From positions 5,593 to 69,592 of the forward strand of contig SKTZ01000029.1 in NCBI GenBank assembly GCA_007122335.1: 64,000 nucleotides of DNA. Direction: 5' to 3'. Below are positions 35,827-53,976 of the stretch, one piece after another; position 1 is the stretch's first letter, and each line of letters opens with the position of its first letter. A program made the position numbers and the translations under genes. Under the pieces are notes generated by a model. The model searched no databases, was not told where the DNA came from, and worked only from the letters and a program-made list of their open reading frames with translations. Origin of the DNA: Bacillota bacterium (GTDB taxonomy: Bacteria > Bacillota > Halanaerobiia > B1SED10-174).

Positions 35827-36318
35827 ATGGCAAAAACTATTGAGCAGGAAAACTACCGCGAAAAAGTGGAAGAAATTGTGGCTTTTTTCCCTGAAAAAAA
35901 AGGAGCATTAATACCAGCCCTACAGGCGATCCAAAAGGAATTTGGTTACCTGCCACGTCCCGCTCTGGAGGTTCTTTCAGGATCCTTGCGAATGCCTCTG
36001 AGCACAATTTTTGGAGTGGCTACTTTTTATGCCCAGTTTCATTTGCAGCCCAGAGGTAAACATATTGTCCGGGTTTGTATGGGCACTGCCTGCCACGTTC
36101 GAGGAGGCCAAAAACTTCTGGCGACCCTGGAAAATGAACTTGGAGTTGAGGCAGGGGGAACCACTGAAGATCTGAATTTCACCCTGGAGGAAGTAGCCTG
36201 TATTGGAGCGTGTGGTCTTGCTCCAGCAGTTATGGTAGACGATGAAACATACGGCAGATTGACCTCTGACAAATTAACCGAAGTCCTTGACCAGTACCGG
36301 AAGGGAAAGGAGGGATAA
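35827..36318 (+). CDS. NuoE/HydC/HoxE-family [2Fe-2S] thioredoxin-like ferredoxin subunit
   Basis: Four-Cys pattern (CMGTAC...C..C in VCMGTACHVRG...ACIGACGLAPA) of the 24-kDa subunit family. Confidence 0.8.
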   Translation: MAKTIEQENYREKVEEIVAFFPEKKGALIPALQAIQKEFGYLPRPALEVLSGSLRMPLSTIFGVATFYAQFHLQPRGKHIVRVCMGTACHVRGGQKLLATLENELGVEAGGTTEDLNFTLEEVACIGACGLAPAVMVDDETYGRLTSDKLTEVLDQYRKGKEG

Positions 36319-36324
36319 AGGGAA

Positions 36325-38076
36325 ATGAAAACTCGAGTTTTAGTAGGAATGGGGACCTGTGGAATTGCTGCAGGGGCAAGAAAAGTTATGGAAGCTCTTG
36401 AAAAAGGCCTGCAAGGGGTAGAAGGAGTCGAACTTTTGCCTACTGGCTGTGTGGGCTTATGTGAAAAAGAGGTAGTTGCTGAAATACAAAAAAATGGGGA
36501 AAAAACCATTTATGGTGACCTTACCCCGGAAAAAGTGGAGAGATTGATAGAGGAAGTAGTTTTAAAGGGTAATATAATTGAGGACTGGATTGCTGCCCGC
36601 CCCGAAGAACCCATCCTGGCCAAACAGGAGCGCATTGTTCTGGAGAATTGTGGGCATATTAACCCGGAAAATATAGATGAATACCTGGAAAAAGGTGGTT
36701 ATAAAGGGCTGGAAAAAGCTCTAAAGGATATGACCCCGGACCAGGTTGTGGAGGAAGTAAAAACTTCGGGGTTAAGAGGGCGTGGTGGAGGAGGTTTTCC
36801 CGCCGGCCTGAAATGGCAGTTTGCCAGCCAGGCCCCTGGAGATAAAAAATATGTTGTTTGTAATGCTGACGAAGGAGATCCAGGAGCATTTATGGACAGG
36901 AGCATAAAAGAGGGAGATCCTCATGCTCTCCTGGAGGGAATGCTTATTTGTGGTTATGCCATAGGCAGTGACGAAGGATATATTTATGTCCGGGCGGAAT
37001 ATCCCCTGGCCATTAAACGAATAAAGGTTGCAATGAAACAGGCCGAAGAACGAGGTTATTTAGGAGAAAATATCCTGGAAACAGATTATAACTTCCGGAT
37101 AAAAATAAAAGAAGGCGCTGGAGCGTTTGTCTGCGGGGAAGAAACCGCCCTGCTTGCATCAATTGAAGGGAGAATGGGACGTCCCCGCCCCAGACCGCCT
37201 TATCCGGCCACAAAAGGCCTTTGGAATAAACCGACCAATATTAATAATGTGGAGACCTATGCAAATATTCCTCGAATTATCAGGCGAGGTGGCGAAAAGT
37301 TCGCTCAAATAGGAACAGAGAAAAGTACGGGCACCAAGGTTTTTGCCCTAACGGGCAAAATTAATAATACAGGTTTGATTGAAGTTCCCATGGGGATTTC
37401 AATTAGAGAGATTATTTACGACATTGGGGGAGGCATTCCCGAGGGAAGAAAGTTTAAAGCTGTACAAATAGGAGGACCATCAGGAGGCTGTATTCCTGCC
37501 CACCTGTTGGATCTGCCCATTGATTACGATTCTCTGGTAGAATCAGGGGCAATTATGGGCTCAGGTGGTCTTGTAACAATGGATGAGGAGACCTGCATGG
37601 TTGATGTAGCCTGGTTTTTCCTTAATTTCACCCAGAAGGAATCATGTGGAAAATGCACTCCCTGCAGGGAAGGTACCAAACGAATGCTGGAAATCCTGGA
37701 GAGGATAAAAGCTGGGAAGGGGAAGAATGAGGACATTGAAAGGTTAAAATTTCTTGGCCGCAACATTGTGGATACTTCTCTTTGCGGACTTGGACAAACT
37801 GCTCCCAACCCGGTTTTGAGTACTCTACGCTTCTTTGAAGACGAATATCGGGCCCATATTGAAGAACAACGTTGTCCCGCCGGAGTTTGTGCTGATTTAC
37901 TGCGGTATGTAATTGTTCAGGAAGATTGCAAGCGCTGTTCAATATGTGTAAAAGTTTGCCCGGTGAATGCAATTAGCGGTAAACCAAAAGAAAAGCACCT
38001 TATTGACCAAGAAATTTGCACCAAGTGCAATGCGTGCCTGGAAAAATGTCCTTTTGACGCCATAGTTAAAAAGTAG
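36325..38076 (+). CDS. NuoF/HydB-family NAD(H)-binding FMN flavoprotein subunit with N-terminal [2Fe-2S] domain and C-terminal 2x[4Fe-4S] ferredoxin domain
   Basis: GRGGGGFPAGLKW FMN/NADH motif, the 51-kDa subunit SLBB cysteines, and two C-terminal CxxCxxCxxxCP motifs. Confidence 0.85.
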   Translation: MKTRVLVGMGTCGIAAGARKVMEALEKGLQGVEGVELLPTGCVGLCEKEVVAEIQKNGEKTIYGDLTPEKVERLIEEVVLKGNIIEDWIAARPEEPILAKQERIVLENCGHINPENIDEYLEKGGYKGLEKALKDMTPDQVVEEVKTSGLRGRGGGGFPAGLKWQFASQAPGDKKYVVCNADEGDPGAFMDRSIKEGDPHALLEGMLICGYAIGSDEGYIYVRAEYPLAIKRIKVAMKQAEERGYLGENILETDYNFRIKIKEGAGAFVCGEETALLASIEGRMGRPRPRPPYPATKGLWNKPTNINNVETYANIPRIIRRGGEKFAQIGTEKSTGTKVFALTGKINNTGLIEVPMGISIREIIYDIGGGIPEGRKFKAVQIGGPSGGCIPAHLLDLPIDYDSLVESGAIMGSGGLVTMDEETCMVDVAWFFLNFTQKESCGKCTPCREGTKRMLEILERIKAGKGKNEDIERLKFLGRNIVDTSLCGLGQTAPNPVLSTLRFFEDEYRAHIEEQRCPAGVCADLLRYVIVQEDCKRCSICVKVCPVNAISGKPKEKHLIDQEICTKCNACLEKCPFDAIVKK

Positions 38077-38091
38077 AGAGGGGGGAGATAA

Positions 38092-40779
38092 ATGGCGGAA
38101 ATCAGCGTTAAGATCAATGGGCAGGAAGTACAAATTGAAAAAGGAAAAACATTGCTTCAGGCTTGTGAAGAACTTGGTATAGATGTTCCAACACTGTGTT
38201 ATCATCCGCGGGTTGCAATTGAAGGAGCCTGCAGACTTTGCATGGTTGAGGACAAGAAATCAGGACAATTGATTGCTTCCTGTACTCTGGAAGCAGATGA
38301 TGGGATGGAAATAGAGACGGAATCCCCCCGGGTTGTTGAAGCCCGAAAACTGGTTTTGGATTTGCTCCTAGCCTCTCATGATGTTGATTGTTTTGCCTGT
38401 GAGAGAAATGGAGATTGCCGGCTTCAGGATTACTCCTACCGTTATGGAATTGAAAGAACGGCTTTTCCGGGAGAGCGGAGGGAGTTCCCTATTGATAACC
38501 AGAACCCTTTCTTTGAAAGGGATTATAACCGTTGTATCCAGTGCGGATTGTGTGTAAGGGCCTGTCACGAGATTCCCCAGGCCGGGGCCATTGATTTTGC
38601 CAACCGGGGTTTTTCCTCTGAGATAGCAACACCTTTCAATGTTCCCCTGGAGGATTCGACCTGTGTTTTTTGCGGGATGTGTGTGGAATTATGCCCGGTT
38701 GGTGCCCTGGTGCCCCGTTTGGACCGTTTCACCGGTAGGCCCTGGGAGATAGAAAAAGTAAGAACCACCTGTGCTTACTGTGGCGTGGGTTGTCAGATTG
38801 AATTGAATGTTAACGAGGACCGGGTTGTAGGGATCAGTGGCTATGGGGAAAGCGAACCCAATTATGGGGATTTATGTGTTAAAGGTAAATTCGGCTGGGA
38901 CTATATTCACCACCCCGAAAGACTAACCGCTCCCTTGGTCCGGAAGGAAGGCAAGCTTGTTCCAACCAGCTGGGAGGAAGCCCTCGATTATACCGCCCGA
39001 AAATTTAAGGAAATTAAGGAGGAACACGGTGGAGATGCTCTGGGAGGATTGACTTCAGCCAAGTGTACCAACGAAGAAAACTATCTTTTCCAGAAATTTG
39101 TTCGCGCTGCACTGGCAACCCATAATGTTGACCACTGTGCTCGCCTATGACACTCTGCTACAGTAGCCGGTCTGGCTACAGCATTTGGTAGTGGAGCAAT
39201 GACTAACTCTGTTGCGGAAATTGAAAAGGCTCCAGTTATCTTCATCATTGGATCCAACACTACAGAAGCCCATCCTGTAATTAGTTACCGGGTTAAAAAG
39301 GCCGCCCGGGAAGGCAGCAAGATTATTGTCGCCGATCCAAGACGGATTGAACTGGCTGAATATGCTGATATCTGGATGCAGCACCGACCCGGGACCGACG
39401 TAGCCCTGCTGAACGGGCTGATCCACATTATTTTGAAGGAAAACCTTTGGGATCGAAAATTTGTAGAGGAACGAACCGAGGGTTTTTCGGAATTAGAAAA
39501 AGCCGTTTCTAAATTTACTCCGGAATTAGTAAGCCAAATTACTGGTGTTCCAACAGAGCAATTAACAGAAGCTGCCCGCATTTATTCCACCGCTGACGCA
39601 GCTTCAATTCTCTACGCCATGGGGATCACCCAGCACGTTTCTGGGACCGATAATGTTCTGACTCTGGCCAATCTGGCCATGCTGACCGGAAATTTGGGTA
39701 AACCGAATGCAGGTGTAAACCCGCTTCGAGGACAGAACAATGTCCAGGGAGCCTGTGATATGGGTGGATTACCCAATGTGTATCCGGGTTATCAAAAAGT
39801 TGATGACCCCGCAGTCGCAGCAAAATTTGCCGAAAGCTGGGGAAATGTACCCGGAAATGAACCGGGCCTTACAATGATGGAAATGATGGAAGCGGCTGAA
39901 AAGGGAGATATTAAAGCACTGTATATTATGGGTGAAAACCCGGTGCTGAGCGAGCCGGATAGTACCCACAGTAAGGAAAATCTTTCTGCTCTTGATTTCC
40001 TTGTTGTGCAAGATATTTTCCTCAGCGAAACTGCGGAACTGGCTGATGTGGTTTTACCGGGTGTTTCGTTCGCCGAGAAGGAAGGAACTTTTACCAATAC
40101 CGAACGAAGGGTTCAAAGGGTAAGGCAGGGAATCCGGCCTCTGGAAGGAGCCATGGGTGACTGGAAAATTACCCTGGAACTGGCCAAACGAATGGGGTAT
40201 GACTGGAAGTACAATTCCCCTGAAGAAATATTTAATGAGATGGCAGCTTTAACACCTTCATATGCTGGTATTGATTATGACCGGATTGAAAAACAAGGCC
40301 TGCAGTGGCCCTGTCCCGACAAAAATCACCCGGGAACAAGGTACCTGCATCAAGGGAAATTCCCCAGGGGGAAAGGAAAGTTCCACGGGATAGACTTTAT
40401 TCCGCCCGCGGAACTTCCTGACGAAGAATATCCCTTCCTGCTCACCACCGGCCGCAAACTAACCCACTACCACACGGGAACCTTGAGTCGGAGAAGTTCA
40501 GGTCTTTCCACCATAGATCCCGAAGAAATGGTGGAGATCAATCCCAAAGATGCAGAAGCACTCGGACTGGAGGAGGGGGATAAAATGTTAATTGCCTCCC
40601 GCCGGGGAGAGGTGACAGCTCGGGCCAAACCAACCGAAAGAGTTCCGGAAAAAATGATCTTTATGACCTTCCATTTCAGTGAATCTGCTGCAAATGTTCT
40701 TACCAACCCTGTATTGGATCCTGTAGCTAAAATACCGGAGTTTAAGGTTTGTGGTGTAAAAATAAAAAAAGATGAATAA
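38092..40779 (+). CDS. fdhA: NAD-linked formate dehydrogenase catalytic (alpha) subunit, selenocysteine-containing (in-frame TGA 39148-39150)
   Basis: Track ORFs 38092..39150 and 39199..40779 are one frame. N-terminal [2Fe-2S]/[4Fe-4S] NuoG-like domain, then HNVDHCARL-[TGA][20 protein letters not shown]. This matches the conserved Sec/Cys-His active site of molybdopterin FDHs. The remainder is a molybdopterin oxidoreductase domain. Confidence 0.85.
39156..39185 (+). promoter_or_regulatory. SECIS-like stem-loop for the fdhA selenocysteine
   Basis: GTAGCC-GGTCT-GGCTAC hairpin (39163-39179). It starts 13 nt after the TGA and has a GGUC-containing apical loop, as in enterobacterial fdhF SECIS elements. 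Confidence 0.5.
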
Positions 40780-40783
40780 AAAA

Positions 40784-40811
40784 AGGAGGGGATTTATCCC
40801 CTCCTTTTTTG
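40784..40811 (+). terminator. rho-independent terminator
   Basis: AAGGAGGGG-ATTTAT-CCCCTCCTT hairpin followed by TTTTTT. Confidence 0.8.
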
Positions 40812-40995: not shown

Positions 40996-41024
40996 TTGCA
41001 GTATTGATTTATTTGCAATAAAAT
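40996..41024 (+). promoter_or_regulatory. putative sigma-A promoter of the mrp-like operon
   Basis: TTGCAG - 17 nt - TAAAAT, ~40 nt upstream of mrpE. Confidence 0.35.
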
Positions 41025-41061: not shown

Positions 41062-41553
41062 ATGTTTTTTTCCAAGGATGTCCTGGGAATGACAATAATT
41101 TTATATATTTTCTGGCTCCTTATTTCCTGGAGTTTACACTGGGTTAACCTTTTGCTGGGCTTTACCTTTGCTTTTTTTGTGGCCATCTTTATGGCCCCGG
41201 AAATCATAAAAAAAGAGGAAAGGCCGCCGTTTATTGCCCGAGGATTTTTTTTCCTGCGGTTTGTGTTTATTTTAATAAGGGAGATAATCAAAGCCAACAT
41301 CCAGGTTGTGCAGATTGTCCTCAGTCCCAAACTCAATATAACCCCCCAGTTTGTTGAAGTTAAGCAGGTCATGAGGTACCCGGTAACCCAGGTTTTGTGG
41401 GGCAACTCCATCACGCTAACACCGGGGACTTTAACCATAGATGTTGACGATAAAAAAATCCTGATTCATTTTTTAACCGGGGACCTTGTTTCTCACTTCC
41501 CCGATAACCCCGTTGGTAAAGCACTGGTCGAATTCGAGGGGAGATCAAAATGA
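41062..41553 (+). CDS. mrpE: Mrp antiporter subunit E (MnhE/MbhA-like)
   Basis: Family pattern of MnhE. ATG 41062 after GGAGG. Confidence 0.7.
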   Translation: MFFSKDVLGMTIILYIFWLLISWSLHWVNLLLGFTFAFFVAIFMAPEIIKKEERPPFIARGFFFLRFVFILIREIIKANIQVVQIVLSPKLNITPQFVEVKQVMRYPVTQVLWGNSITLTPGTLTIDVDDKKILIHFLTGDLVSHFPDNPVGKALVEFEGRSK

Positions 41554-41813
41554 TTGAAACTGCCTTTTTGGTGGCTGCTATTCTCCTGATGGTGAATGTT
41601 ATATTTTGCCTTTATCGGGCAGCAGTTGGTCCTACTCCGGGAGACCGGGTTGTCGCTATTAATATGATTACAAGTAAGACCATTGCGGTTATGGCCCTGG
41701 TTTCTTTTATGTACCATGAAGAACTGTTTCTTGATGTTGCAATTACTTATACCCTGATCGGTTATACAGCGACCATTTGTGTGGCTAAATACCTGGAATT
41801 GAAGAGGTTATAG
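41550..41813 (+). CDS. mrpF: Mrp antiporter subunit F (MnhF/PhaF)
   Basis: 87 aa, three TM helices. Start overlaps the mrpE stop (ATGA). Confidence 0.7.
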   Translation: MIETAFLVAAILLMVNVIFCLYRAAVGPTPGDRVVAINMITSKTIAVMALVSFMYHEELFLDVAITYTLIGYTATICVAKYLELKRL

Positions 41814-41825
41814 GAGGAGCAAGAA

Positions 41826-42146
41826 ATGCGGGAAATAATTGTAATGCTGTTTTTATTCACCGGTGTCTTCTTTTTTACAGTGGGAACAATCGGGGTTTTG
41901 CGCCTTCCCGATGTTTTTTGCCGCCTCCATGCCAATACAAAAAGTGATACCCTTGGTGTTGGTTTGGTCCTTTCTTCTTTAGTGCTTTATGAAGGACTTT
42001 CTTCAGCGGGAGTTAAAATAGTATTTATGATAATTTTTATCTTGATAACCAACCCCACTGCAGGCCATATTATTGCCCGAGCTTCTTATGATACAATTGT
42101 GGATTGGACCGGGCAGCTGGCCCGGCAAAAGGGTGGTGAGGAATAG
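41826..42146 (+). CDS. mrpG: Mrp antiporter subunit G (MnhG)
   Basis: 106 aa, MnhG-like pattern (VLRLPDVFCRLHANTKSDTLG). Confidence 0.7.
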   Translation: MREIIVMLFLFTGVFFFTVGTIGVLRLPDVFCRLHANTKSDTLGVGLVLSSLVLYEGLSSAGVKIVFMIIFILITNPTAGHIIARASYDTIVDWTGQLARQKGGEE

Positions 42147-42382
42147 TGGCGATCTTAGATCTCCTTTTATTGAGTATTCTTGTTCTCTGTGCTTTGGCCG
42201 CGGTTCGAACCCGGGATCTTCTTGGGGCAGTAATAATATATGCCGCTTATAGTCTTTTGATGGCAATTATCTGGCTACAACTGGGCTCACCTGATGTTGC
42301 GATTACGGAGGCTGCACTGGGAGCTGGAGTTACTACCATACTTATGATTGCCACCATTAGTAAGACGGGGAGGTATGAATGA
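42146..42382 (+). CDS. DUF4040-type membrane subunit (N-terminal MrpB/MbhD-like)
   Basis: 78 aa, two TM helices, GTG start overlapping the upstream stop. Position and size match MbhD-type split MrpB subunits. Confidence 0.55.
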   Translation: MAILDLLLLSILVLCALAAVRTRDLLGAVIIYAAYSLLMAIIWLQLGSPDVAITEAALGAGVTTILMIATISKTGRYE

Positions 42383-42735
42383 TGCGTCAAATTATCCCTT
42401 TTTTCTTAACCCTGGTCCTGGGAGCTGCTCTGCTACTGGTGGTCGCCGAAATGCCTCCGTTTGGGGATATAAATAACCCCGCTCATAATGTAGTTAGCGA
42501 ACGCTACCTGAATCAGGGAGTTCGGGAAACCGGAGCACAGAATATTGTCACTGCTATAATCACGGACTACCGTGCCTATGATACTCTGGGAGAGGTCACG
42601 GTTTTGTTTGCTGCTATTGCTGCAGTGCTTACTGTTTTAAACAGGTTGCGCTTGGGAGTAATCTGTCCTGAAGACAGGGAAAGGGGACTGACAGATGAGG
42701 ATGCAGGAGATCCTGATACTGAAGATAGTTGTTAG
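42379..42735 (+). CDS. MnhB-domain subunit (MrpB/MbhE-like)
   Basis: NIVTAIITDYRAYDTLGEVTVLF matches the MnhB signature. Confidence 0.6.
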   Translation: MMRQIIPFFLTLVLGAALLLVVAEMPPFGDINNPAHNVVSERYLNQGVRETGAQNIVTAIITDYRAYDTLGEVTVLFAAIAAVLTVLNRLRLGVICPEDRERGLTDEDAGDPDTEDSC

Positions 42736-43126
42736 ATTTGTTATTCCCTTTATCCAGGTCTATGGATTTTATGTAATTACTGCTGGACATCTTAGTCCTG
42801 GTGGTGGTTTTGCCGGGGGAACAATTGTTGCTGCCAGCATGGTTTTATATGCCCTGACTTTTGATGCTTCCCAGGGTCTTGAAAAACTCTCCCATGAAAG
42901 AGCATCCCTGTTTGAGAGTCTGGGAGCTATCTGGTATGTTGCCCTTGGTTTTTTGGGAATCCTTGTCGGAGGTAATTTCCTTACAAATGGGCAGATTGGA
43001 ATTCCTCTTGGCACACCGGGCTACCTGATAAGTGGGGGTTTGATTCCCCTTCTTTCTTTTGGGATTGGAATAAAAGTCGCAGTTACCGTTGTCAGCCTTT
43101 ATTATTCGCTGGTTGAGGAGGATTAG
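42695..43126 (+). CDS. MrpB C-terminal-like subunit (MbhF-like)
   Basis: GHLSPGGGFAGG motif typical of the MrpB second half. Start may be ATG 42701. Confidence 0.55.
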   Translation: MRMQEILILKIVVRFVIPFIQVYGFYVITAGHLSPGGGFAGGTIVAASMVLYALTFDASQGLEKLSHERASLFESLGAIWYVALGFLGILVGGNFLTNGQIGIPLGTPGYLISGGLIPLLSFGIGIKVAVTVVSLYYSLVEED

Positions 43127-43128
43127 TT

Positions 43129-43506
43129 ATGGCCGAAGCCCTTGCAGCCCTGGGCCAGAATTATTTCTTTTATTATGCTCTTATTCTTTTTATGGTTGGA
43201 TTTTATACCACACTGAGCCATTCAAATATTTTAAAAAAAATCATTGGGATCAATATAATGGAAACCTCAATATTCCTATTTTTTGTTGCCCTTGGTTATG
43301 TTGAGGGTGGGCAGGCTCCAATAATGGGTAGAGGAGCCGAAGGAGGGCCTTATATGAATCCCCTGCCCTCGGCCTTGATTCTTACTGGAATTGTTGTATC
43401 GGTAAGTATTACGGCTTTTGCCCTGGCTTTGATGGTTAAACTTTATCATTTTTATGGAACCCTTGACGCTGATGAAATTGTTATGCTGCGAGGAGAAAGA
43501 CAATGA
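43129..43506 (+). CDS. mrpC: Mrp antiporter subunit C (NuoK/MnhC-like)
   Basis: 125 aa, three TM helices, NuoK-like. Confidence 0.7.
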   Translation: MAEALAALGQNYFFYYALILFMVGFYTTLSHSNILKKIIGINIMETSIFLFFVALGYVEGGQAPIMGRGAEGGPYMNPLPSALILTGIVVSVSITAFALALMVKLYHFYGTLDADEIVMLRGERQ

Positions 43507-44993: not shown

Positions 44994-45028
44994 AAAACAC
45001 TATGAATTAACAGGAGGAGGCAACCGGG

Positions 45029-46525
45029 ATGGTACAGGGAGTAGAAACGCATTCGCATTTACCGGGATTGGTCGTATTAATTCCAATAATTTTTACTGCA
45101 TTGGTAGGGATTTTCCAGAAAAGGTCATTTTTGCTCCGCAACTGGCTTTTTATTAGCGGCGCGGCAATTACCTTTGCTGGAATGGCTTTGATGGGCTATT
45201 ATGTCCTGCAGGGAAGAATACTGGTTATCAACTATCTTGTGGCCATGTTTCCGTTTACCATTACATTCAGAGTGGATACCCTAAGTTTTCTTATTGGGGT
45301 TGTTGCTGCAGGAGTATGGCTATTGGCTTCAATATATTGCTTGCAGTACATGAAAGATGACCATGCTCCCAACCGTTATTTCCCGGTTCATATTTTTACC
45401 CTGGCTGGTTCGCTAGGGGTATTTCTTGCGGGGAACCTCTATACTTTTTTCCTCTTTTATGAGGTAATGGCTTTTTCCGGTTACTTATTTGTTATCCATG
45501 CTGAAACTCCAGAAGCTTTTAAAGCTGGATCCAGGTACCTGATGGTAACCATCCTGAGTGGTATCCTGGTTTTCACTGGGGTTATTATTACCTATCAGCT
45601 GGCAGGAACTCTTGACCTGGGTTCTTTAGGAATCATTCCCGAGGCCAATGTTGTCTCCCTGATCGCCTTTGTGGCTTTTATAATTGGTTTTGGTTTTAAG
45701 GCGGGTCTTTTTCCGCTGCATACCTGGTTGCCTGCTGCTCACCCGGTTGCGCCGTCTCCAGCGAGTGCTTTGCTTTCTGGGATTTTGATCAAAACTGGAG
45801 CTTACGGAATAATCCGGGTAACCTATAACGTTTACGGGATCGAGATGATGCGGGATACTGGCTGGCCCACTATTCTGCTGATTTTCGCTGCGATTACCAC
45901 TCTTTACGGATCCATGGCTGCTCTGGTTCAGGATAATCTTAAAAGACGTCTCGCTTATTCAAGTATCAGTCAGATCGGATATATACTTATGGGGGGAGCC
46001 CTTCTTACCGAGCGTGGCCTGGCTGGTGATGTTTTTCACATTGTCAGTCATGCGACAATCAAAAGCACCTTGTTTTTAACTGCAGGGGCAATTATTACCA
46101 AGACGGGGATTAAATATGTAAGCCAGATGGCAGGAGTGGGGCGAAAAATGCCCTATACCATGGGGGCTTTTACCCTTGCTGCACTGGCTATGATCGGGAT
46201 TCCACCTTTAAATGGTTTTGTTAGTAAATGGGCCCTGGCCCTGGGTGCTTTAGATGCTGGCCAGCCAGGCTATGCGGTTGTTCTTTTAATCAGTAGTATG
46301 TTGAACGCCCTGTACTATTTACCAATTGTAATTCTTGCTTATTTCCGCAAACCGGAAGAAGGGACAGTTCTTTATGGAGATATGTTGCGTTACGATGAAG
46401 CCAGGGCGAGTATGCTTGTGCCAATTTTAATTCTGGCTCTGAGTTTGGTCATATTCAATATCCTACCTGTTAACCTGCCACTGGTTCTGGCCGAATTCTC
46501 CGCACGGGCCCTTTTCCAGCACTAG
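45029..46525 (+). CDS. second MrpD/NuoM-like antiporter subunit
   Basis: 498 aa paralog (GFGFKAGLFPLHTWLPAAHPVAPSPASALLS). Confidence 0.8.
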   Translation: MVQGVETHSHLPGLVVLIPIIFTALVGIFQKRSFLLRNWLFISGAAITFAGMALMGYYVLQGRILVINYLVAMFPFTITFRVDTLSFLIGVVAAGVWLLASIYCLQYMKDDHAPNRYFPVHIFTLAGSLGVFLAGNLYTFFLFYEVMAFSGYLFVIHAETPEAFKAGSRYLMVTILSGILVFTGVIITYQLAGTLDLGSLGIIPEANVVSLIAFVAFIIGFGFKAGLFPLHTWLPAAHPVAPSPASALLSGILIKTGAYGIIRVTYNVYGIEMMRDTGWPTILLIFAAITTLYGSMAALVQDNLKRRLAYSSISQIGYILMGGALLTERGLAGDVFHIVSHATIKSTLFLTAGAIITKTGIKYVSQMAGVGRKMPYTMGAFTLAALAMIGIPPLNGFVSKWALALGALDAGQPGYAVVLLISSMLNALYYLPIVILAYFRKPEEGTVLYGDMLRYDEARASMLVPILILALSLVIFNILPVNLPLVLAEFSARALFQH

Positions 46526-46541
46526 GAAGGATGTAGATATA

Positions 46542-48956
46542 ATGGTTAATGCAATCGGGCCGAGCATGCAAAACGCGTTGCTTGTAACCGCGATATTTGC
46601 TCCCCTTCTGGCCGCTGGAGCCCTGTTTAAAGTAAGGGTTTTTAAAACGGCACACAAAATTGCTCTTGTGGCAATTGGGCTTGCTGTTGGGGCGTTAGTT
46701 GCTGTTGTTGGGGAGCCGATAGAATTTATCTGGGAAGGTTTCCTCGGGGTAAGATTTGTCCTTGCTCCTGATTACATGGGGATTTTCCTTGCCATTATGG
46801 CCCTTGTTTTATGGTTTCTTTATACTCTTTTTAGCCTTGATTTTATGCAGAGAAGCCATAATTCAATTCGTTTTCTTTTCTTTTCCCTGCTTTCCCTGAC
46901 TGGAACCCTTGGTGTTTTTCTTGCAGGGGATCTTTTTACAATGTTTGTCTTCTTTGAATTTATGGCCTTTGCCTCTTTTCCCCTGGTTATCCATGAGGAG
47001 ACTGAAGAGGCTCACCGGGCGGGCAAACAGTACCTTTATATTGGAGTGCTGGGAGGCCTGACTATTTTGCTGGGCCTTTTTCTGCTGTACCATCGCCTGG
47101 GAACTCTTGTATACAGTGAACTGGGAGGAGCACTGGCTGGTGGGTCCCCGGTGGATATAATAATTATCGCTGGTCTGCTGCTCGGGTTTGCCATAAAGGC
47201 GGGCCTGGTTCCAGTCCACTTCTGGGTACCCCAGGGTTATGTTGCCGCCCCGGCACCTGGTAGCGCAATCCTTTCTGCCGTTCTTAAAAAATGTGGAGTT
47301 TTTGGGATTATCCGTTTGCTCTTTTTAATGGCTCCGATGTTAACTTTCGGGCAGGTAATACTTGGTTTTGGTTTATTAACAATGGTTTTGGGATCGCTAC
47401 TGGCCTTTTTTGAGCATAACGGGAAAAGAATACTTGCTTACAGCAGTGTAAGCCAGGCGGGTTATATTATGGTAGGGTTCGGCGGAGGCGCGATAATGGC
47501 TGAAACTGGAGTAATGGGAGGTCTTGGTTCTTTTTTCCACGTTCTCAACCATGCTCTCTTCAAAGGAAGCCTATTTTTAGCTTTGGGTTATACTTTTCTG
47601 CGAACCCGGGAATTCAATATTTATCGCCTGGGTAACCTCTGGAAGAAGATGCCCTTTACAACCATTTTAGCAGTTGTTTCTGCAGCCGGGCTAATGGGAT
47701 TACCTCTTTTTAACGGTTATCCCAGCAAAACAATGATTCACCACGCCATTACTTTCGCCGAAAGTGAAACTCAAATGGCGATATACGGATATGCTGAAAC
47801 CCTTTTTAATATTGGTGCCGCAGGGACCACTGCTTATTGCATCAAGCTGATTTATAATGTTTTCTTCGCTCCCCGGGAGCCTGAGTTTACAGGGGAAAAA
47901 GAAAAACCCCTGGTTCAGGGGATATTTATGGTTTTAATTGTAGCCATGCTTTTTATCGGGCTGTTTCCAACTCTGACCATGGAAACCATTATTTTCCCCG
48001 CTGCAGGTGCTTTTTTCCTGGACCCTGATTTTGTTGATTATAAATTAGGTGGGTACAATTTTTTCAATGCTTATGATCTGCGGGGGGCTTTTAAAATTCT
48101 TTTAATTGGTCTGGGGTTAACCGCTATCAACCTTGTTTTGGTCAAAAAACGAATAGACCTTCCCCGCTGGTTATCAATTGAAAGGCTTGTTTTGAATCCT
48201 TTAATTAAGGCTTTAGGGGCAATTCTTGGTGCTTCATATTATTTTATTAATAATCGGCTAATGGGTTTTGGGACTGGTCTCGTAGAAGGCTATAAAAAAG
48301 GACTTCCCTTTATTAACCACCTGGATGGCTATGTTGATGAAATAGGAAAGAGAACAGATGATCTTTTTGCCGGATTTGTTTTCAAGACCTCGGGTAGCCA
48401 TGACCAGAGAAAGCTGATCAATCTGATTTTAGATTATGGAAAGGAAGAAAAAGAAGAAGCTGAGCTGCATGGGTTCTGGAATTGGTTAACGGGTGAAGGA
48501 ATTTTACAACCAGTTGATAAAGAGAATGTTGATTCCCCCGATTTTATTGGAAGTGTTGAAGATTTCAGCAAAAGAATTCAGGAAATGATGGAAAAAGAAG
48601 AGTTGACGGAAAAAGAGAAAAATCGCGTAGAAAGACTTTTTGCCCGGCTTATGGCTTTAGAAGAAAAGGGCATTTCCCCAAAAAGTATGGAGGAGAAAAG
48701 TTATCCTCATTTGCGGATTATCCAGCGAATGGAAGAGATATTCCAGTACCTTACGGGGAATATACAAACTGTTGACGGGTTGGAAAAAGACCAGGAAAAA
48801 GCCCGGGTAGACAAGAAAAAAATCGAAAAAAAGAAGGAAGCTCTGGATTCCGGCTGGGGCAAGTGGAGCGTGTTGAACCTTAATTTTGACATGATTATCC
48901 TTGCTGTTACTCTGGTAATTGCGGTTATATTGCTGGTATTTTTTGCCCAGATTTAA
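46542..48956 (+). CDS. MrpA/NuoL-like antiporter subunit with ~230-aa hydrophilic helical extension and C-terminal TM anchor
   Basis: N-terminal ~520 aa antiporter core (GFAIKAGLVPVHFWVPQGYVAAPAPGSAILS). Then a charged, coiled-coil-like region (EEKEEAELHGF...KEKNRVERLFARLMALEEKG...). It ends with a single TM (MIILAVTLVIAVILLVFFAQI). Confidence 0.75.
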   Translation: MVNAIGPSMQNALLVTAIFAPLLAAGALFKVRVFKTAHKIALVAIGLAVGALVAVVGEPIEFIWEGFLGVRFVLAPDYMGIFLAIMALVLWFLYTLFSLDFMQRSHNSIRFLFFSLLSLTGTLGVFLAGDLFTMFVFFEFMAFASFPLVIHEETEEAHRAGKQYLYIGVLGGLTILLGLFLLYHRLGTLVYSELGGALAGGSPVDIIIIAGLLLGFAIKAGLVPVHFWVPQGYVAAPAPGSAILSAVLKKCGVFGIIRLLFLMAPMLTFGQVILGFGLLTMVLGSLLAFFEHNGKRILAYSSVSQAGYIMVGFGGGAIMAETGVMGGLGSFFHVLNHALFKGSLFLALGYTFLRTREFNIYRLGNLWKKMPFTTILAVVSAAGLMGLPLFNGYPSKTMIHHAITFAESETQMAIYGYAETLFNIGAAGTTAYCIKLIYNVFFAPREPEFTGEKEKPLVQGIFMVLIVAMLFIGLFPTLTMETIIFPAAGAFFLDPDFVDYKLGGYNFFNAYDLRGAFKILLIGLGLTAINLVLVKKRIDLPRWLSIERLVLNPLIKALGAILGASYYFINNRLMGFGTGLVEGYKKGLPFINHLDGYVDEIGKRTDDLFAGFVFKTSGSHDQRKLINLILDYGKEEKEEAELHGFWNWLTGEGILQPVDKENVDSPDFIGSVEDFSKRIQEMMEKEELTEKEKNRVERLFARLMALEEKGISPKSMEEKSYPHLRIIQRMEEIFQYLTGNIQTVDGLEKDQEKARVDKKKIEKKKEALDSGWGKWSVLNLNFDMIILAVTLVIAVILLVFFAQI

Positions 48957-48972: not shown

Positions 48973-49437
48973 ATGAATATTAAACATTTTATTGTGAATG
49001 TTGAAGCAGTAATTTCCCGTGGGGACAAGTGGTTGATAATTAAACGGAGTGAAAAGGAAGACCACGCACCTGGAGCCCTTGCTCTGGTGGGGGGGAAGGT
49101 AGAGGTTGACAAAGGAAATGTTATCGAAGATGTTTTAGAAAAAACTCTACACCGGGAGATTGAAGAAGAAGTCGGTATTGAGATAGAAAAAGATCTAGAG
49201 TATGTGGAAAGTAAATTTTTTGTCGCCGATGACAATCAGCCTGTTGTTGACCTTGTTTTTTTATGTCAATATAAAAGCGGTGAGGCAACTCCCGCAGACC
49301 CAGAGGAAGTTGCTGATGTATTCTGGAAAACCGAAGATGAGATCTTGGCAGATCCCAATACACCAGAATATTTAAAAAGGAGTTTGCAGAAAGCTTGGGA
49401 AGTAAAAAATGAAATGGATCCAGGATTAAATTCCTGA
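48973..49437 (+). CDS. NUDIX hydrolase
   Basis: Nudix box GGKVEVDKGNVIEDVLEKTLHREIEEEVGIEI. ATG 48973 after GGGGAGG. No terminator separates it from the mrp cluster. Confidence 0.8.
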   Translation: MNIKHFIVNVEAVISRGDKWLIIKRSEKEDHAPGALALVGGKVEVDKGNVIEDVLEKTLHREIEEEVGIEIEKDLEYVESKFFVADDNQPVVDLVFLCQYKSGEATPADPEEVADVFWKTEDEILADPNTPEYLKRSLQKAWEVKNEMDPGLNS

Positions 49438-49474
49438 CTCCCCAGGGGGATTGGATTCTCCTGGGAATAAAAAA

Positions 49475-49502
49475 AGCTCCCGTATGAGGGAGCTTTGTTT
49501 TA
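49475..49502 (+). terminator. rho-independent terminator
   Basis: AGCTCCC-GTATGA-GGGAGCT hairpin followed by TTGTTTT. Confidence 0.7.
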
Positions 49503-49504
49503 AG

Positions 49505-49591
49505 TGGTGCCGAAGGTGGGATTCGAACCCACACGAAGGTAACTTCACACGACCCTGAATCGTGCGCGTCTGCCAATTCCGCCACTTCGGC
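49505..49591 (-). tRNA. tRNA-Leu (anticodon CAG)
   Basis: The reverse complement reads GCCGAAG-TG-GCGG...ACGC-CACGA-TTCAGGG-TCGTG-(long variable arm)-GTGGG-TTCGAAT-CCCAC-CTTCGGC-ACCA. It has a 7-bp acceptor stem, a CAG anticodon loop, a long extra arm and an encoded CCA. Confidence 0.85.
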
Positions 49592-49782
49592 TTACACATA
49601 TAATATAAAGTATCGTGGTCTCCTTGTCAAGGAATATCTGGTATTTTTGGCAGGAATAATGTGCTTTATGACGAATTGAAAAAGGTGGGTGTTTAACAGG
49701 AAAGAAAATTATTAGGCAAGTGGGATGGATTGGTTTTGCGAGGATTGAAAAATATTTTTGGTGCGAGGAGGGCAGGTTCTAT

Positions 49783-50232
49783 ATGAGCAAGGATCTGGTC
49801 GCAGAAAAGTCAAACCTTATTAAGGTGTTACAGACGGAGCAAAAGAAGGAAGGTTTTATCTCTGATGCTGCAATAGAGAGAATAGCTGGAGAATTTAACC
49901 TTCCTGTTGTAGAGGTTGAAGGTGTTGTGAGTTTTTATACCCAGTTCAAAAGGGTTCCCCCGGGCAAATACCAGATTATGGTTTGTGATGGGACTGCATG
50001 TCATATTATCGGTTCAACCCTGATCTTGAACTGGCTTACTGACGAACTTGGCATAAAAGACGGGGAGACCGATGAAGAAGGTCTCTTTTCTTTGGAAAGC
50101 GTTGCCTGCCTGGGTTGTTGCAGTTTAGCCCCGGTAATCAGCATTAACGGCAAGGTCTATGGTAAGCTTGATCGCAAAAAACTATTAAAAATTGTAGCAG
50201 ACTTTCGGAAAAAGGAGGCAGCTGGATCATGA
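49783..50232 (+). CDS. NuoE/HydC-family [2Fe-2S] ferredoxin subunit (second copy)
   Basis: VCDGTACHIIG...ACLGCCSLAPV four-Cys pattern. ATG 49783 after GAGGAGGG. Confidence 0.8.
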   Translation: MSKDLVAEKSNLIKVLQTEQKKEGFISDAAIERIAGEFNLPVVEVEGVVSFYTQFKRVPPGKYQIMVCDGTACHIIGSTLILNWLTDELGIKDGETDEEGLFSLESVACLGCCSLAPVISINGKVYGKLDRKKLLKIVADFRKKEAAGS

Positions 50233-51950
50233 TAAAAAGAATTAAAGTGGGGATGGCCAGCTGTGGTATTGCTGCCGGAGCAGGTGAAGTGCTGGAATTA
50301 CTGCAGGAAATGGCCGGAGATAATAAAGTTGTTGAAGTTGGTTGTATCGGACACTGTTATGCTGAACCTCTTGTTGAAGTTGAAACAGATTCCGGGGACT
50401 ATATTTTTGAAAAAGTCCAACCCAAGGAAGAAGACCTGCAGAAGATTATTGACCTGGATGAATTTTCTCGCTTTCAACCCCATTCCCCGCGTGTTGATAA
50501 AGAAAGACAATTGATTACCTCTCTCGCCGGGAAAATTGTTCCCACCTCTCTTGAGGAATACAGGGCTAACAAAGGATACGAGGGCTTGAAAAAAGCTCTG
50601 GAAATGGAACCGGATGCAATTGTTGACGAAGTGAAAACTTCCAAGTTGCGTGGCCGTGGTGGGGGAGGTTTTCCCACGGGATTAAAATGGAGCTTCCTGG
50701 CAGCCAAGGACAGCGAGCAAAAAGTTTTAATTTGCAATGCTGACGAGGGAGATCCGGGGGCTTTCATGGATCGGACTTTAATGGAATCACTTCCCCATCA
50801 GGTTTTGGAAGGAATGTTGATCGGGGCGAAAGCAACTGGTGCCCGCCAATTATTTATTTATTGCCGGGCGGAATATCCCCTGGCAGTAAAAAATTTGAAT
50901 ATTGCGATTGAACAGATTGAAAAAGAAGGCCTTAATATAATCGATGGAGAGCCCGTTAAAATTATGGTTAAAGAAGGAGCGGGGGCATTTGTTTGCGGAG
51001 AAGAAACTGCCCTCATTCACTCCCTTGAAGGGAAGAGAGGGACTCCAAGGTATCGCCCCCCATATCCAACTGACTATGGTTTCCACGGCTATCCCTCGGC
51101 AATAAACAATGTTGAAAGTTTTGCGAATATCCCCCTGATTGTCCGGGATGGAGGGGAAAATTTTGCAGCTACGGGAACCGAGAATAGCACGGGAACAAAA
51201 CTCTTTGCTCTCGCCGGAGACCTGGAGTATTCTGGACTTGTTGAGGTTCCCATGGGAATTTCTATAGGGGAAGTTGTCTACGACATTGGAGGGGCTGAAC
51301 CGGGAAGTGTTAAGGCTGTCCAGATTGGAGGCCCCAGCGGTGGTTGCATTCCTGCGGAACACTTTGATACTCCCATTGACTACGACTCTCTCACTTCCCT
51401 GGGTGCAATTATGGGGTCAGGTGGCTTGATTGTAATTGGAAATAACCGTTGCATGGTTGAAACTGCTCGCTATTTCCTGGAATTTACAACCAGGGAAAGC
51501 TGCGGGAAGTGTACTTTCTGCCGGATCGGAACCAAGCGAATGCTGGAGACTCTGGAAAGAATAACCGGTGGGGAAGGTGGTCCCGAAGATGTAGAGCTCC
51601 TCGCTGATCTGGGTAAGAAAATTATTCAGGGATCCTTGTGTGGGCTCGGTCAAACCGCTCCCAACCCGGTGCTTTCTACCCTCAAATATTTCAATAATGA
51701 ATACCTGGCTCACGTCGAAGAAGGCCATTGTGCGGCCATGGAGTGCAAGGCCCTGGTTGATGTTTTTATCGATAGGGAAACCTGCATTGAATGCGGGCAG
51801 TGTATTAAGAATTGCCCCGTTGATTGTATAAGCGAGGATTACGTGATTGATAATGAAATTTGCACCCGCTGCAACAGCTGTATTGAGGTTTGTCCTGTAG
51901 ATGCCATTGCCCGGGTTGCGAAAGGAGGGGAAGTCAGTGTCGGAAATTAA
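50229..51950 (+). CDS. NuoF/HydB-family NAD(H)-binding flavoprotein with N-terminal [2Fe-2S] and C-terminal 2x[4Fe-4S] domains (second copy)
   Basis: GRGGGGFPTGLKW motif and CxxCxxCxxxCP x2 at the C-terminus. Paralog of 36325..38076. Confidence 0.85.
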   Translation: MIKRIKVGMASCGIAAGAGEVLELLQEMAGDNKVVEVGCIGHCYAEPLVEVETDSGDYIFEKVQPKEEDLQKIIDLDEFSRFQPHSPRVDKERQLITSLAGKIVPTSLEEYRANKGYEGLKKALEMEPDAIVDEVKTSKLRGRGGGGFPTGLKWSFLAAKDSEQKVLICNADEGDPGAFMDRTLMESLPHQVLEGMLIGAKATGARQLFIYCRAEYPLAVKNLNIAIEQIEKEGLNIIDGEPVKIMVKEGAGAFVCGEETALIHSLEGKRGTPRYRPPYPTDYGFHGYPSAINNVESFANIPLIVRDGGENFAATGTENSTGTKLFALAGDLEYSGLVEVPMGISIGEVVYDIGGAEPGSVKAVQIGGPSGGCIPAEHFDTPIDYDSLTSLGAIMGSGGLIVIGNNRCMVETARYFLEFTTRESCGKCTFCRIGTKRMLETLERITGGEGGPEDVELLADLGKKIIQGSLCGLGQTAPNPVLSTLKYFNNEYLAHVEEGHCAAMECKALVDVFIDRETCIECGQCIKNCPVDCISEDYVIDNEICTRCNSCIEVCPVDAIARVAKGGEVSVGN

Positions 51951-53976
51951 ACTGACCATAGACGGAAAACAGATTACAGCCCCCAGAGGGAAGACCATAC
52001 TTGAAGTGGCCAAAGAAAATGGGATAGAAATCCCGACCATGTGTCACGATGATAGAATAAGCCAGACCACCTCCTGCTTTGTTTGTATTGTCCGGGAAGG
52101 GAAGAATGGAAACTGGATGCCCTCCTGCTCTGCAGAAGCCCAGGATGGGATGGAAGTTGATGCATCAAGTGATCTAGTTCGGGATATGCGGAAAACCGCC
52201 CTGGACCTGCTCCTTTCTGAGCATAGCGGAGATTGCGAGGCTCCCTGCACGATTTCCTGTCCCGCCCATGCCCGGGTTGAAGAATACGTGAGAGCAGGAC
52301 GGGACGGTGATTTGCGGAAAACACTGGAAATTGCCAAGGAGCGTATTCCCCTGCCCCTCTCAATTGGAAGGGTTTGTCCGCGGTTTTGTGAAAAGGACTG
52401 CCGGCGTAATGTGTTAGATAATGAAGGTGTTGCCATTAACGATTTCAAACGCATTTCGGCCGACCTTTATTATGATGAATATATGGAGGAACGGAAAGAA
52501 CTGACCGGACAAAAGGTTGCTATTATCGGTTCTGGCCCTGGCGGACTGGCAACTGCCTATTTCCTGAGGTTAGAAGGTGTGGCCTCTGATATTTACGAAA
52601 AATTACCTGAGGCCGGAGGTATGCTCCGTTACGGTATTCCAGAATACCGCTTGCCCAAGAAGGTTTTGGATAAAGAACTGGCTCATTTTGAAAAAATGGG
52701 TGGTATTAAAATATACTGTAATAACGAATTGGGCAAAGACATCCAGCTGGATAAACTCAAAAAAGAATATGATGCAGTTGTGGTAGCTGTTGGTTCCTGG
52801 AAGGCCAGCGGAATGAGAACTGAAGGGGAAGAGCTGGCCAGGGGAGGCATTGACTGGCTGGAAGAGCTGGCCCTTAATGGCTGGAAAGGTGAAGACCCTG
52901 GAGAAACCATAGTTGTAGGTGGTGGAAACACCGCCATGGACTGTGTACGCAGTGCGCTTCGCCTGACTGATGAACCTGTTCACTGTATGTACCGCCGGAC
53001 GGAAAAAGAAATGCCGGCCGAGCAAATTGAGATAGATGAAGCACGGGAGGAAGGTGCCCGGTTTAATTTCCTAACTCAGCCCATTAAACTTCGCAGAGAA
53101 AACGGGAAACTTGTTCTGGAATGCTTGCGGATGGAACTGGGTGAACCAGATGCTTCGGGAAGAAGGCGTCCCGTGCCCATTGAAGGCAGTGAATTTGAAG
53201 TTGCCGCAGATACTGTTATCGCTGCTATCGGACAGAAAACCCTTGCTCCAAAAGGGCTTCCAACTAACAAGTGGGGCGACGTAGATGTTGAAGAAGCTGA
53301 CTGCCGGGCAGAAGGTAATGTTTTTGCTGCAGGTGACTGTGTAAGTGGTCCAGCAACAGTTGTCGAAGCAGTTGCCGGTGGAAGAAGAACTGCCCTGGGA
53401 ATACTGGCCTACCTTAAAGGAGAAGAGTGCCAGCTTCCCCGTCAGATTAATGTCTCGCGCGGACACTGGCAGAGCATGTCCGAAGACGATCTGGTCTACC
53501 TTTTTGAACCCGATAAAAACAAAAGAGTCCCTCTGCGTTTGATACCCCTGGAAGAGAGAACTTCTACCTTTAAAGAAGTTAGTTATACCTTTACCGAAGA
53601 GGAAATTTTGGAAGAAGGAAAACGCTGTATTGAGTGTAGCTGTACTGCCAAAGGAGATTGTAAGCTTAAAGACTTCTCTGAAACCTATGGAGCCCATCCG
53701 GAAACATTTGGTGGAGAGAAAGGAAATAATACCTACAATTCCCGCCATCCCCACATAATAATGGATAACGGAAAATGTGTAAAATGTGGGATTTGTGTAA
53801 AAGTCTGCAGCGAGGTCGTTAACGAATATCTCCTGGGCTTTAAAAACCGGGGCTTTAAAACCAAGGTTGAAACTGCATTTGATACAACCCTTCCTGAATT
53901 CTGCACCGATTGCGGTGAATGTATTGAAGCCTGCCCGGTGGGAGCCCTGGATTGGAAAAAGAAAAAGGACGAATAA
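51937..53976 (+). CDS. GltD/NfnB-like NAD(P)H-dependent FAD oxidoreductase fused between NuoG-type N-terminal [2Fe-2S] and C-terminal His-ligated/[4Fe-4S] cluster domains
   Basis: N-terminal ferredoxin-like [2Fe-2S] region ([22 protein letters not shown]...MCHDD...CFVC). Then the GltD-type two-cluster motif ([10 protein letters not shown]...CPRFCEKDC) and the FAD/NAD(P) Rossmann motif ([15 protein letters not shown]). The C-terminus carries [21 protein letters not shown] and [15 protein letters not shown] 51937 after AAAGGAGGGG. Confidence 0.7.

Follow-up and report, generated by a model that had tools for sequence, protein, structure and literature searches.

Do three adjacent operons, each resembling a piece of a respiratory complex, encode a single energy-conserving machine? 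The question is raised by contig SKTZ01000029.1 of a Bacillota bacterium (assembly GCA_007122335.1), of which we analysed a stretch of 64,000 nucleotides (positions 5,593 to 69,592 of the forward strand; hereafter referred to as the window). Between window positions 35827 and 53976, an operon for a selenocysteine (Sec)-containing formate dehydrogenase (FDH; unit 1), an operon for an Mrp-type cation/proton antiporter (unit 2) and an operon for a transhydrogenase of the Stn/Nfn type (unit 3) follow one another, every protein gene of the three units being on the plus strand. An initial annotation of this DNA had described them as a Sec-FDH/NuoEF, an Mrp-like membrane module in Mbh order and a NuoEF/GltD-like module, and had proposed that they might form an undescribed formate-dependent, ion-gradient-linked or bifurcation-based unit. 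A single machine of this kind would amount to a remarkable ion pump, one that runs on formate or NAD(P)H and lacks a Q-module, but the evidence says otherwise. Most probably, the locus consists of three independent transcription units of known types, adjacent through lineage-specific gene order.

We determined the gene content of 35827-53976 from the listing of open reading frames (ORFs) and from Pfam scans, with NCBIfam for some proteins; in the rest of the window, the larger ORFs were scanned for families. The genes and their common orientation were confirmed by the ORF listing and Pfam, and the identities of the three modules were borne out by Pfam and Protein Data Bank (PDB) matches. The host belongs to the family Halobacteroidaceae; it is a haloalkaliphilic anaerobe from a lineage of metagenome-assembled genomes (MAGs) of soda-lake sediment. 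Its closest species representative is the soda-lake MAG Halobacteroidaceae bacterium T1Sed10_148 (locus L003), with 94% identity in the 804-residue Mrp protein of unit 2. At least 18 independent contigs, drawn from several assemblies, encode a 100%-identical FdhA, the catalytic subunit of unit 1, in the same gene order, which shows that the arrangement is genuine and did not arise during assembly.

The three units are probably independent transcription units, whose boundaries we predicted from sequence. An intrinsic terminator composed of an A-tract, a 14-bp stem and a T-tract ends the FDH operon at 40779-40810 (40784-40811 in the initial annotation); its predicted folding energy is -21.8 kcal/mol (z = -4.9), and none of 200 shuffled sequences was as stable. 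In the related loci L003 and L001 the terminator is near-invariant, while the adjoining spacer diverges. Before the ribosome-binding site (RBS) of mrpE, the first gene of unit 2, lies a promoter-like block, TTGCAG-17 nt-TAAAAT (40996-41024, plus strand), with a TTGCA...TGCAA palindrome. The sequence of this putative promoter does not change between the window, L003 and L001, although the rest of the spacer varies; it scores below the threshold of the consensus scan. At the other end of unit 2, the initial annotation had the units adjoining as they do, but had missed a NUDIX hydrolase gene and a minus-strand tRNA-Leu gene lying between units 2 and 3. It had seen no terminator from 48956 until about 49475, and indeed the next one is a bidirectional intrinsic terminator at 49473-49496, predicted to serve the NUDIX gene on the plus strand (-16.7 kcal/mol, z = -5.6) and the tRNA gene on the minus strand (-15.8 kcal/mol, z = -6.3). 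The tRNA-Leu(CAG) gene (49505-49591, minus strand; ARAGORN, and Rfam tRNA model with 53.8 bits) has a predicted promoter of its own, TTGACA-17-TATATT (49630-49602, minus strand; 11/12 in the sigma-70 scan). Its direction of transcription is opposite to that of the flanking operons, and its position and strand are the same in L001 and L003. An assignment of this tRNA as tRNA-Sec was considered and rejected, as ARAGORN and Rfam identify it as tRNA-Leu(CAG).

We then ordered the relatives of the locus by the identity of their FdhA to that of the window. The loci L173-176 (100%) carry FDH-Mrp-NUDIX-Stn (tRNA genes were not scanned there), L003 (93%) carries FDH-Mrp-NUDIX-tRNA up to the end of its contig, which stops before unit 3, and L001 (86%) carries FDH-Mrp-NUDIX-tRNA-Stn. 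In L168/169 (81%), FDH-Mrp is followed by an MCP (chemotaxis) gene, with neither NUDIX nor Stn. In L170/171 (63%), the order is GTPase-TldD/PmbA-DAGK-FDH-glycerate kinase (glxK)-HD-phosphodiesterase-Mrp-fdhD, with three unrelated genes between FDH and Mrp. The upstream part of the window, too, contains the GTPase and TldD/PmbA genes; the proximity of FDH and Mrp in this clade is thus part of a general collinearity that includes unrelated genes. Conservation of the neighbourhood, which the initial annotation had put forward as a check, was found for the three-unit order only in relatives with an FdhA identity of at least 86% (86-100%), the order being broken at 81% and 63%. For the three-unit island, this is essentially the outcome that the annotation itself had named as speaking against its proposal, namely a neighbourhood not conserved elsewhere and separate operons. 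With separate transcription signals and an order found only in close relatives, the proposal of one undescribed unit is not supported.

Unit 3 has a different set of customary neighbours. It belongs to a housekeeping cluster of nusB, folD, xseAB, ispA, the ornate large extremophilic (OLE) RNA and dxs, in which its recurring partner is folD. In two other groups of loci from Halanaerobiales, the orders are folD-xseA-xseB-[stn]-ispA-dxs-rrmJ-nadK-argR-recN-spo0A (L163/164) and tRNA-Leu-asp23-x-nusB-[stn]-folD-xseAB-ispA-OLE (L165/166), and neither FDH nor Mrp was found near stn in these loci. The direct stn-folD adjacency of the window is shared by L001 and L165/166, the cluster being the same in L163/164. 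Short stn genes of Halanaerobiales thus occupy two different insertion points within the nusB/folD/xseAB/ispA/dxs cluster. The OLE RNA itself lies at 57239-57833 of the window (plus strand; full-length match to the model with 495.7 bits), between ispA and a 189-residue ORF that is followed by dxs; L001 and L165 have it at the corresponding position.

The junction between the two neighbourhoods is marked by the tRNA. In the window, tRNA-Leu(CAG) separates Mrp/NUDIX from stn-folD, and in L165 (6034-6118) the same tRNA is on the plus strand upstream of asp23-nusB-stn. The genes asp23, nusB and fdhD were sought in the window and not found; the lack of the first two, together with the difference in tRNA strand, suggests a rearrangement breakpoint at tRNA-Leu. 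The FDH-Mrp part is one piece of a collinear block with unrelated genes, the Stn part is one of the housekeeping cluster, and the two meet at the tRNA gene. A tRNA gene placed at the Mrp/NUDIX-Stn junction, exactly where the gene order of distant relatives differs, could also be taken as the integration site of a horizontally acquired island for haloalkaline adaptation and energy metabolism. We regard this as very improbable and rejected it: the annotated ORFs include no integrase, transposase or repeat signature, G+C content (0.43-0.48) and GC skew pass into the flanks without a break, FDH and Mrp are collinear with vertically related genomes, and the tRNA gene, which is intact, has a block on either side instead of marking the edge of one insert.

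Could the three units nevertheless act as one complex? The membrane arm would be that of unit 2, which is predicted to encode a stand-alone group-3 Mrp cation/proton antiporter without a redox input module. Its ten Mrp genes (41062-48956, all on the plus strand) encode MnhE, MrpF, MnhG, MbhD, MbhE, MnhB, a NuoK-like protein and three Proton_antipo_M proteins, which is the Mbh order. The small subunits, with their Pfam families, are MrpE (41062-41553; MNHE), MrpF (41550-41813; MrpF_PhaF), MrpG (41826-42146; PhaG_MnhG_YufB), the MbhD-like (42146-42382; MbhD) and MbhE-like (42379-42735; MbhE) proteins, MrpB (42695-43126; MnhB) and the MrpC/NuoK-like protein (43129-43506; Oxidored_q2); these gene calls are identical in L173-176. 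Next come two MrpD-like antiporter subunits, MrpD1 of 496 residues (43503-44993; PF00361, 3e-65) and a second of 498 residues (45029-46525; PF00361, 7e-58), and a third antiporter-like subunit of 804 residues, mrpA' (46542-48956; PF00361), which resembles N-terminal MrpA, NuoL and MbsH'. The transcription unit ends with the gene for the NUDIX hydrolase of 154 residues (48973-49437, plus strand; PF00293, 5e-15), which begins after a gap of 16 nt and has a GGGGAGG RBS; it is present, as judged by Pfam, in L001 and L173-176 and missing in L168 and L170.

The C-terminus of the 804-residue subunit is drawn out into a charged, helical extension (about 230 residues), whose last element is one transmembrane helix. 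Its AlphaFold 2 model (mean confidence score, pLDDT, 61) has a confident core and values below 50 for residues 569-804; residues 546-613 form a long helix, and the final helix spans 777-803. Within the extension (about 570-804), the only invariant positions are W775, D783, L787 and L791.

A supercomplex would have the NuoEF-FDH and/or NuoEF-GltD modules docked on the Mbh-like Mrp arm, making an ion pump powered by formate or NAD(P)H, in analogy to Fdh-Mfh-Mnh, formate hydrogenlyase (FHL), Mbh or complex I except that it would lack a Q-module. Some features of unit 2 are in keeping with this. Besides the Mbh order and the adjacency of FDH, the best PDB matches of MrpD1 are MbhH (6cfw_H, 245 bits) and MbsH, with bacterial MrpD ranking lower, and the 804-residue subunit matches MbhH (194 bits), MbsH/H', MrpA (7qru_A) and HycC, with MbhH/MbsH above bacterial MrpD/A; moreover, its C-terminal extension looks cytoplasmic. 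That extension, however, is also kept in orthologues encoded in quite other contexts, beside Rnf or beside nothing of the kind; close homologues of the subunit are few. No ORF of 35827-53976 matched the NuoH, NuoB, NuoC, NuoD or NuoI families in Pfam, nor did the larger ORFs in the remainder of the window, and the annotated genes tile 35827-53976 fully, so that there is no coding room for these proteins or for an MbhM-like one; on the absence of a Q-module and of a NuoH connector, the initial annotation was right. Every known redox-driven relative couples through such a connector and redox module (PMC8415708, PMC7419157). Taken together with the separate transcription signals and an adjacency that is not general, these results make a supercomplex extremely improbable, and nothing indicates that FDH, Mrp and Stn form a physical or regulatory unit. 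What the antiporter would do on its own is exchange cytoplasmic Na+ for external H+, driven by the membrane potential, and thereby contribute to pH and Na+ homeostasis in a high-pH, high-salt carbonate brine. Alkaliphiles are enriched in Mrp (PMC11931622).

Coupling need not be physical. FDH and group-3 Mrp might be functionally coupled in alkaliphilic anaerobes and co-regulated in one Na+/H+ and C1 economy; for instance, H+ import or Na+ cycling by Mrp would support CO2/formate interconversion at high pH, or Mrp would serve more generally as an ion converter for ferredoxin-linked energy conservation. To examine how often the genes meet, we used 80 FDH-centred metagenome loci (FdhA identity 51-62%; at least 2 kb of downstream sequence in 44, at least 5 kb in 27 and at least 9 kb in 17) and 80 Mrp-centred genome loci, which fell into 38 lineage clusters at 60% MrpD1 identity.

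Several observations agree with functional coupling and weigh against our reading of three independent units. Within the Halobacteroidaceae clade, the proximity of FDH and Mrp persists from 100% to 63% FdhA identity, through rearrangements and insertions. An Actinomycetota clade shows it independently: seven loci there have the order nuoF-fdhA(Sec)-AMP-ligase-dedA-mrp, in which about 3 kb separate FDH from an Mrp operon of the same type downstream. In the sister-lineage loci L002 and L167, fdhD directly follows Mrp. In at least 12 loci from soda-lake Syntrophomonadaceae-like/Bacillota MAGs, this Mrp type is flanked by rnfB and apbE, in tightly packed rnfCDGEAB-mrp-apbE arrays: in L010 (304-14707), the gaps are 58 nt between rnfB and mrp, with no terminator-like site, and 7 nt between mrp and apbE. 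Finally, on sequence alone, read-through of the terminators in the window may occur. The Rnf-associated loci (L010, L014, L017, L024, L035, L038, L042-L045, L058 and L079) have the overall order rnfCDGEAB-mrp-apbE-hepS-like-maf-radC.

Other results reduce the force of these points. The Halobacteroidaceae proximity is part of the larger collinear block with GTPase and TldD/PmbA; unrelated genes intervene both in the sister lineage and in Actinomycetota; and in the window a conserved terminator separates the units. Mrp subunits were near FDH in none of the 80 FDH-centred loci. Most of the 38 Mrp-centred clusters are without FDH, and most are without any redox neighbour, the contexts being many. 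By a rough estimate, which assumes 1-2 FDH operons per 3-Mb genome and is not a formal test, about 0.2 independent FDH-Mrp recurrences are expected by chance; chance is thus enough to account for the single recurrence that is truly independent, out of about 37 further lineages. In the literature searched, we found no specific description of an FDH-Mrp or Rnf-Mrp-ApbE unit. Functional coupling of FDH and Mrp seems to us quite unlikely. About as unlikely, in our estimation, is the proposal that the Mbh-order group-3 Mrp is a dedicated ion-converting partner of ferredoxin-linked modules (Rnf, and Bfu-type FDH in Halobacteroidaceae and Actinomycetota), with real coupling of formate/CO2 to Na+/H+ at high pH. 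This Mrp type does tend to sit near ferredoxin-linked energy genes, which is a property of the family and no evidence for a three-part island; its proximity to rnf and FDH would suit a part in how alkaliphilic anaerobes manage Na+ and H+. We thus retain the reading of three independent units, which may cooperate metabolically, as loosely as cell-wide redox and ion systems do.

What, then, does each of the two redox units do? Unit 1 is predicted to be a soluble FdsGBA-like Sec formate dehydrogenase with a Bfu-type beta subunit. Its three plus-strand genes, in the order gamma-beta-alpha as in fdsGBA and with gaps of 6 nt and 15 nt, encode a NuoE/FdsG/HydC-like, thioredoxin-like [2Fe-2S] gamma subunit of 163 residues (35827-36318; PF01257, 6e-53; NCBIfam NuoE/FdsG families) with four cysteines at 84, 89, 125 and 129, a NuoF-like FMN/NADH beta subunit of 583 residues (36325-38076; Pfam Complex1_51K, NADH_4Fe-4S and two Fer4), and the FdsA-like alpha subunit FdhA of 895 codons (38092-40779) with a NuoG-like N-terminus and Sec, identified by Pfam, PDB matches and TIGR01591. 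FdhA contains the Pfam domains Fer2_4, NADH-G_4Fe-4S_3, Molybdop_Fe4S4, Molybdopterin and Molydop_binding, matches R. capsulatus FdsA (6tg9_A) end to end with 794 bits, and scores 661 bits against TIGR01591 in its C-terminal part, the cut-off for the whole protein being 666. A single in-frame TGA (39148-39150) lies within a 13-residue catalytic motif, and the UGA is followed by a hairpin resembling a selenocysteine insertion sequence (SECIS) element (39148-39200 including the UGA, plus strand; -18.2 kcal/mol) with a GUAGCC/GGCUAC apical stem and a GGUCU loop. An Actinomycetota homologue (L047) has the same GGUCU loop and a compensatory change of the stem to GUCGCC/GGCGAC. The fold is barely better than those of shuffled sequences (z = -1.8) and is supportive, not decisive.

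The beta subunit points to the likely electron partners. Two CxxCxxCxxxC motifs, at 535 and 565, lie in its C-terminal part, and the subunit aligns with full-length Bfu B subunits (StnB, NiFe-HydB, NfnB and HydB) with 763-812 bits, the top PDB match being StnB (8oh5_B, 812 bits); against FdsB it scores 369-412 bits, and the alignment with 6tg9_B (369 bits) ends at residue 508. The Fe-S content of the beta subunit is a feature that separates bifurcating from non-bifurcating relatives (PMC7311640). By this criterion, we infer from the extra Fe-S domains, which lie at both the N-terminal and the C-terminal end of the subunit and are typical of Bfu-type bifurcating enzymes, a ferredoxin- and NAD-coupled Sec-FDH, which would couple formate/CO2 interconversion to NAD(H) together with ferredoxin. 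The accessory genes fdsC, fdhD and fdsD are not in the operon, and fdhD was absent from the whole window in a tblastn search with FdhD of L002 as query. There is no separate HylA subunit among the three genes, the NuoG-like domain being fused to FdhA. Haloacetibacter carboxydivorans (PMC12835891) was considered as a model and rejected, since its FDH arrangement differs and its Stn is long.

Two further observations concern FDH loci. Directly 5' of the FDH operon lies an ORF for a strongly hydrophobic, multi-transmembrane protein of 322 residues (34605-35573, plus strand) with no match in Pfam or NCBIfam; L169 and L173-L176 have this ORF at the corresponding position, and it could encode a transporter. 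In many metagenomic loci (L085, L101, L105, L106, L124, L132, L135, L140, L141, L153, L155 and L160), FDH is encoded by four genes, nuoE-nuoF-(GltD-like)-fdhA, the GltD-like subunit being 33-40% identical to StnC and inside the FDH operon; the GltD-like module of the window has its own NuoEF pair elsewhere.

Unit 3 is predicted to be a described type of enzyme, a short StnABC/NfnABC transhydrogenase of the Bfu family, and not a novel module; the function and architecture of Stn have been reported (PMC7483475, PMC10482914). Its genes, on the plus strand, encode a StnA/NfnC-like, NuoE-type [2Fe-2S] subunit of 149 residues counted from an ATG (49783-50232; PF01257, 1e-45), a StnB/NfnB-like, NuoF-like flavoprotein (50229-51950; Pfam; CxxCxxCxxxC motifs at 519 and 545) and a short StnC-like large subunit of 691 residues (51901-53976; Pfam Fer2_4, Fer4_20, Pyr_redox_2 and two Fer4). 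The first has cysteines at 89, 94, 130 and 133/134 in the numbering of the long ORF and is called with 149 residues in L001 and L173. The second aligns over its full length with NfnB (9n5u_B, 627 bits; 9bov_B, 622 bits) and StnB (8oh5_B, 606 bits). The large subunit consists of an N-terminal [2Fe-2S] domain, a GltD/NfnB-like FAD/NADPH domain and two [4Fe-4S] clusters; its true start is probably 12-14 codons inside the ORF, giving about 678 residues. It aligns to residues 4-673 of 9bov_A (1178 residues, 587 bits) and to residues 2-672 of StnC 8oh5_C (1172 residues, 531 bits). In S. ovata StnC, an FdhF-like domain at residues 683-1172 holds clusters C1 and C2, and StnC subunits mediate tetramerisation (PMC10482914); no FdhF-like C-terminal domain was found in the unit-3 protein, which has no Molybdopterin domain in Pfam and whose PDB alignments end at about 673. 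This short form is widespread: among the matches listed, all 120 were of about 672-694 residues, with 61-90% identity, and came from many phyla. Within the window, the NuoF paralogues are 52% and the NuoE paralogues 40% identical, so that each catalytic subunit has its own old, dedicated NuoEF pair.

The predicted reaction of unit 3 would be NADH + reduced ferredoxin + 2 NADP+ <-> NAD+ + oxidised ferredoxin + 2 NADPH. Downstream lies folD, encoding methylenetetrahydrofolate dehydrogenase/cyclohydrolase (53952-54863, plus strand; Pfam THF_DHG_CYH and THF_DHG_CYH_C), with a likely start near 54015. No terminator-like site was found in 53976-54015, the roughly 38 nt between unit 3 and folD, and the two are probably co-transcribed. 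In S. ovata, methylenetetrahydrofolate dehydrogenase is NADP-specific, and Stn has been proposed to serve C1-tetrahydrofolate metabolism (PMC7483475). By analogy, the short Stn may balance the NADH, ferredoxin and NADPH pools, supplying or consuming NADPH for FolD and C1-tetrahydrofolate metabolism.

Elsewhere in the window, a glycine-betaine ABC transporter is encoded just upstream of the 18-kb region, and the other genes are unrelated housekeeping genes. At 16343-19403, on the minus strand of a window that is otherwise oriented to the plus strand, lies a cluster with a BcrAD/BadFG-type ATPase and DUF2229/HGD-D proteins, resembling 2-hydroxyacyl-CoA dehydratase activases.

These assignments provide a useful annotation for an uncultured soda-lake member of Halobacteroidaceae: a probable ferredoxin/NAD-linked Sec-FDH, a three-pump group-3 Mrp and a folD-linked short Stn, which together suggest a C1/tetrahydrofolate-based, ferredoxin-dependent metabolism at high pH. 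The variant features of the three predicted systems (Sec with a Bfu-type beta subunit in FDH, three pumps in Mrp, and the short Stn) are common in sequence databases and are known there as sequences. The widespread short StnC form and the recurring rnf-mrp-apbE arrays of soda-lake anaerobes may interest specialists.

How do the three units compare with known systems? Unit 1 shares with FdsGBA of Rhodobacter capsulatus and Cupriavidus necator (PDB 6tg9 and 6vw7) the gamma-beta-alpha order and a cytoplasmic location, with no signal sequence or membrane subunit, but differs in its Sec (UGA) active site, in the C-terminal 2x[4Fe-4S] ferredoxin domain of the beta subunit and in the lack of fdsC, fdsD and fdhD nearby. 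The bifurcating HylABC-FdhF2 of Gottschalkia (Clostridium) acidurici (Wang et al. 2013; cited in PMC7311640 and PMC12835891) likewise combines a NuoE/NuoF pair and Bfu-type Fe-S clusters with a Sec or Mo/W FDH, and the predicted reaction of unit 1, formate oxidation or CO2 reduction coupled to NAD+ plus ferredoxin, would be of the same kind; unit 1 differs in lacking HylA and in having the NuoG-like Fe-S domain joined to FdhA, as in FdsA.

Stand-alone group-3 Mrp is represented by mrpEFGBB'CD of Pyrococcus furiosus (PMC8415708) and the anaerobe-type mrp of Natranaerobius thermophilus, which has three overlapping mrpB genes (Ito et al. review, PMC5703873). Unit 2 resembles these in the E-F-G genes, the split MrpB-domain genes, C and D, in the lack of a fused canonical MrpA and of a hydrogenase or sulfur-reductase module, and in having an anaerobic extremophile as host; it differs in having three antiporter-like subunits instead of one, an 804-residue member with a long extension, and an appended NUDIX gene. 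With Mbh, Mbs and Fdh-Mfh-Mnh of Thermococcales, FHL and complex I, it has in common a homologous membrane arm with the gene order of MbhA-H, and with the fdh-mfh-mnh clusters also an FDH encoded next door; unlike all of these, the window has no NuoH/MbhM-like subunit and no NuoB/C/D/I-like redox module, by which those complexes are defined, and, unlike in complexes of the Fdh-Mfh-Mnh type, the FDH is soluble, NAD(H)-linked and provided with its own terminator.

Unit 3, whose activity is predicted, differs from StnC and the large chain of Csac NfnABC in its length (691, or about 678, versus 1172-1178 residues), the whole FdhF-like domain being missing. It is like StnABC/NfnABC in the order of nuoE-like, nuoF-like and large-subunit genes and in a large subunit composed of [2Fe-2S], FAD/NADPH and 2x[4Fe-4S] parts, and like S. 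ovata stn in adjoining genes of C1-tetrahydrofolate metabolism, stn lying there downstream of the Wood-Ljungdahl pathway cluster.

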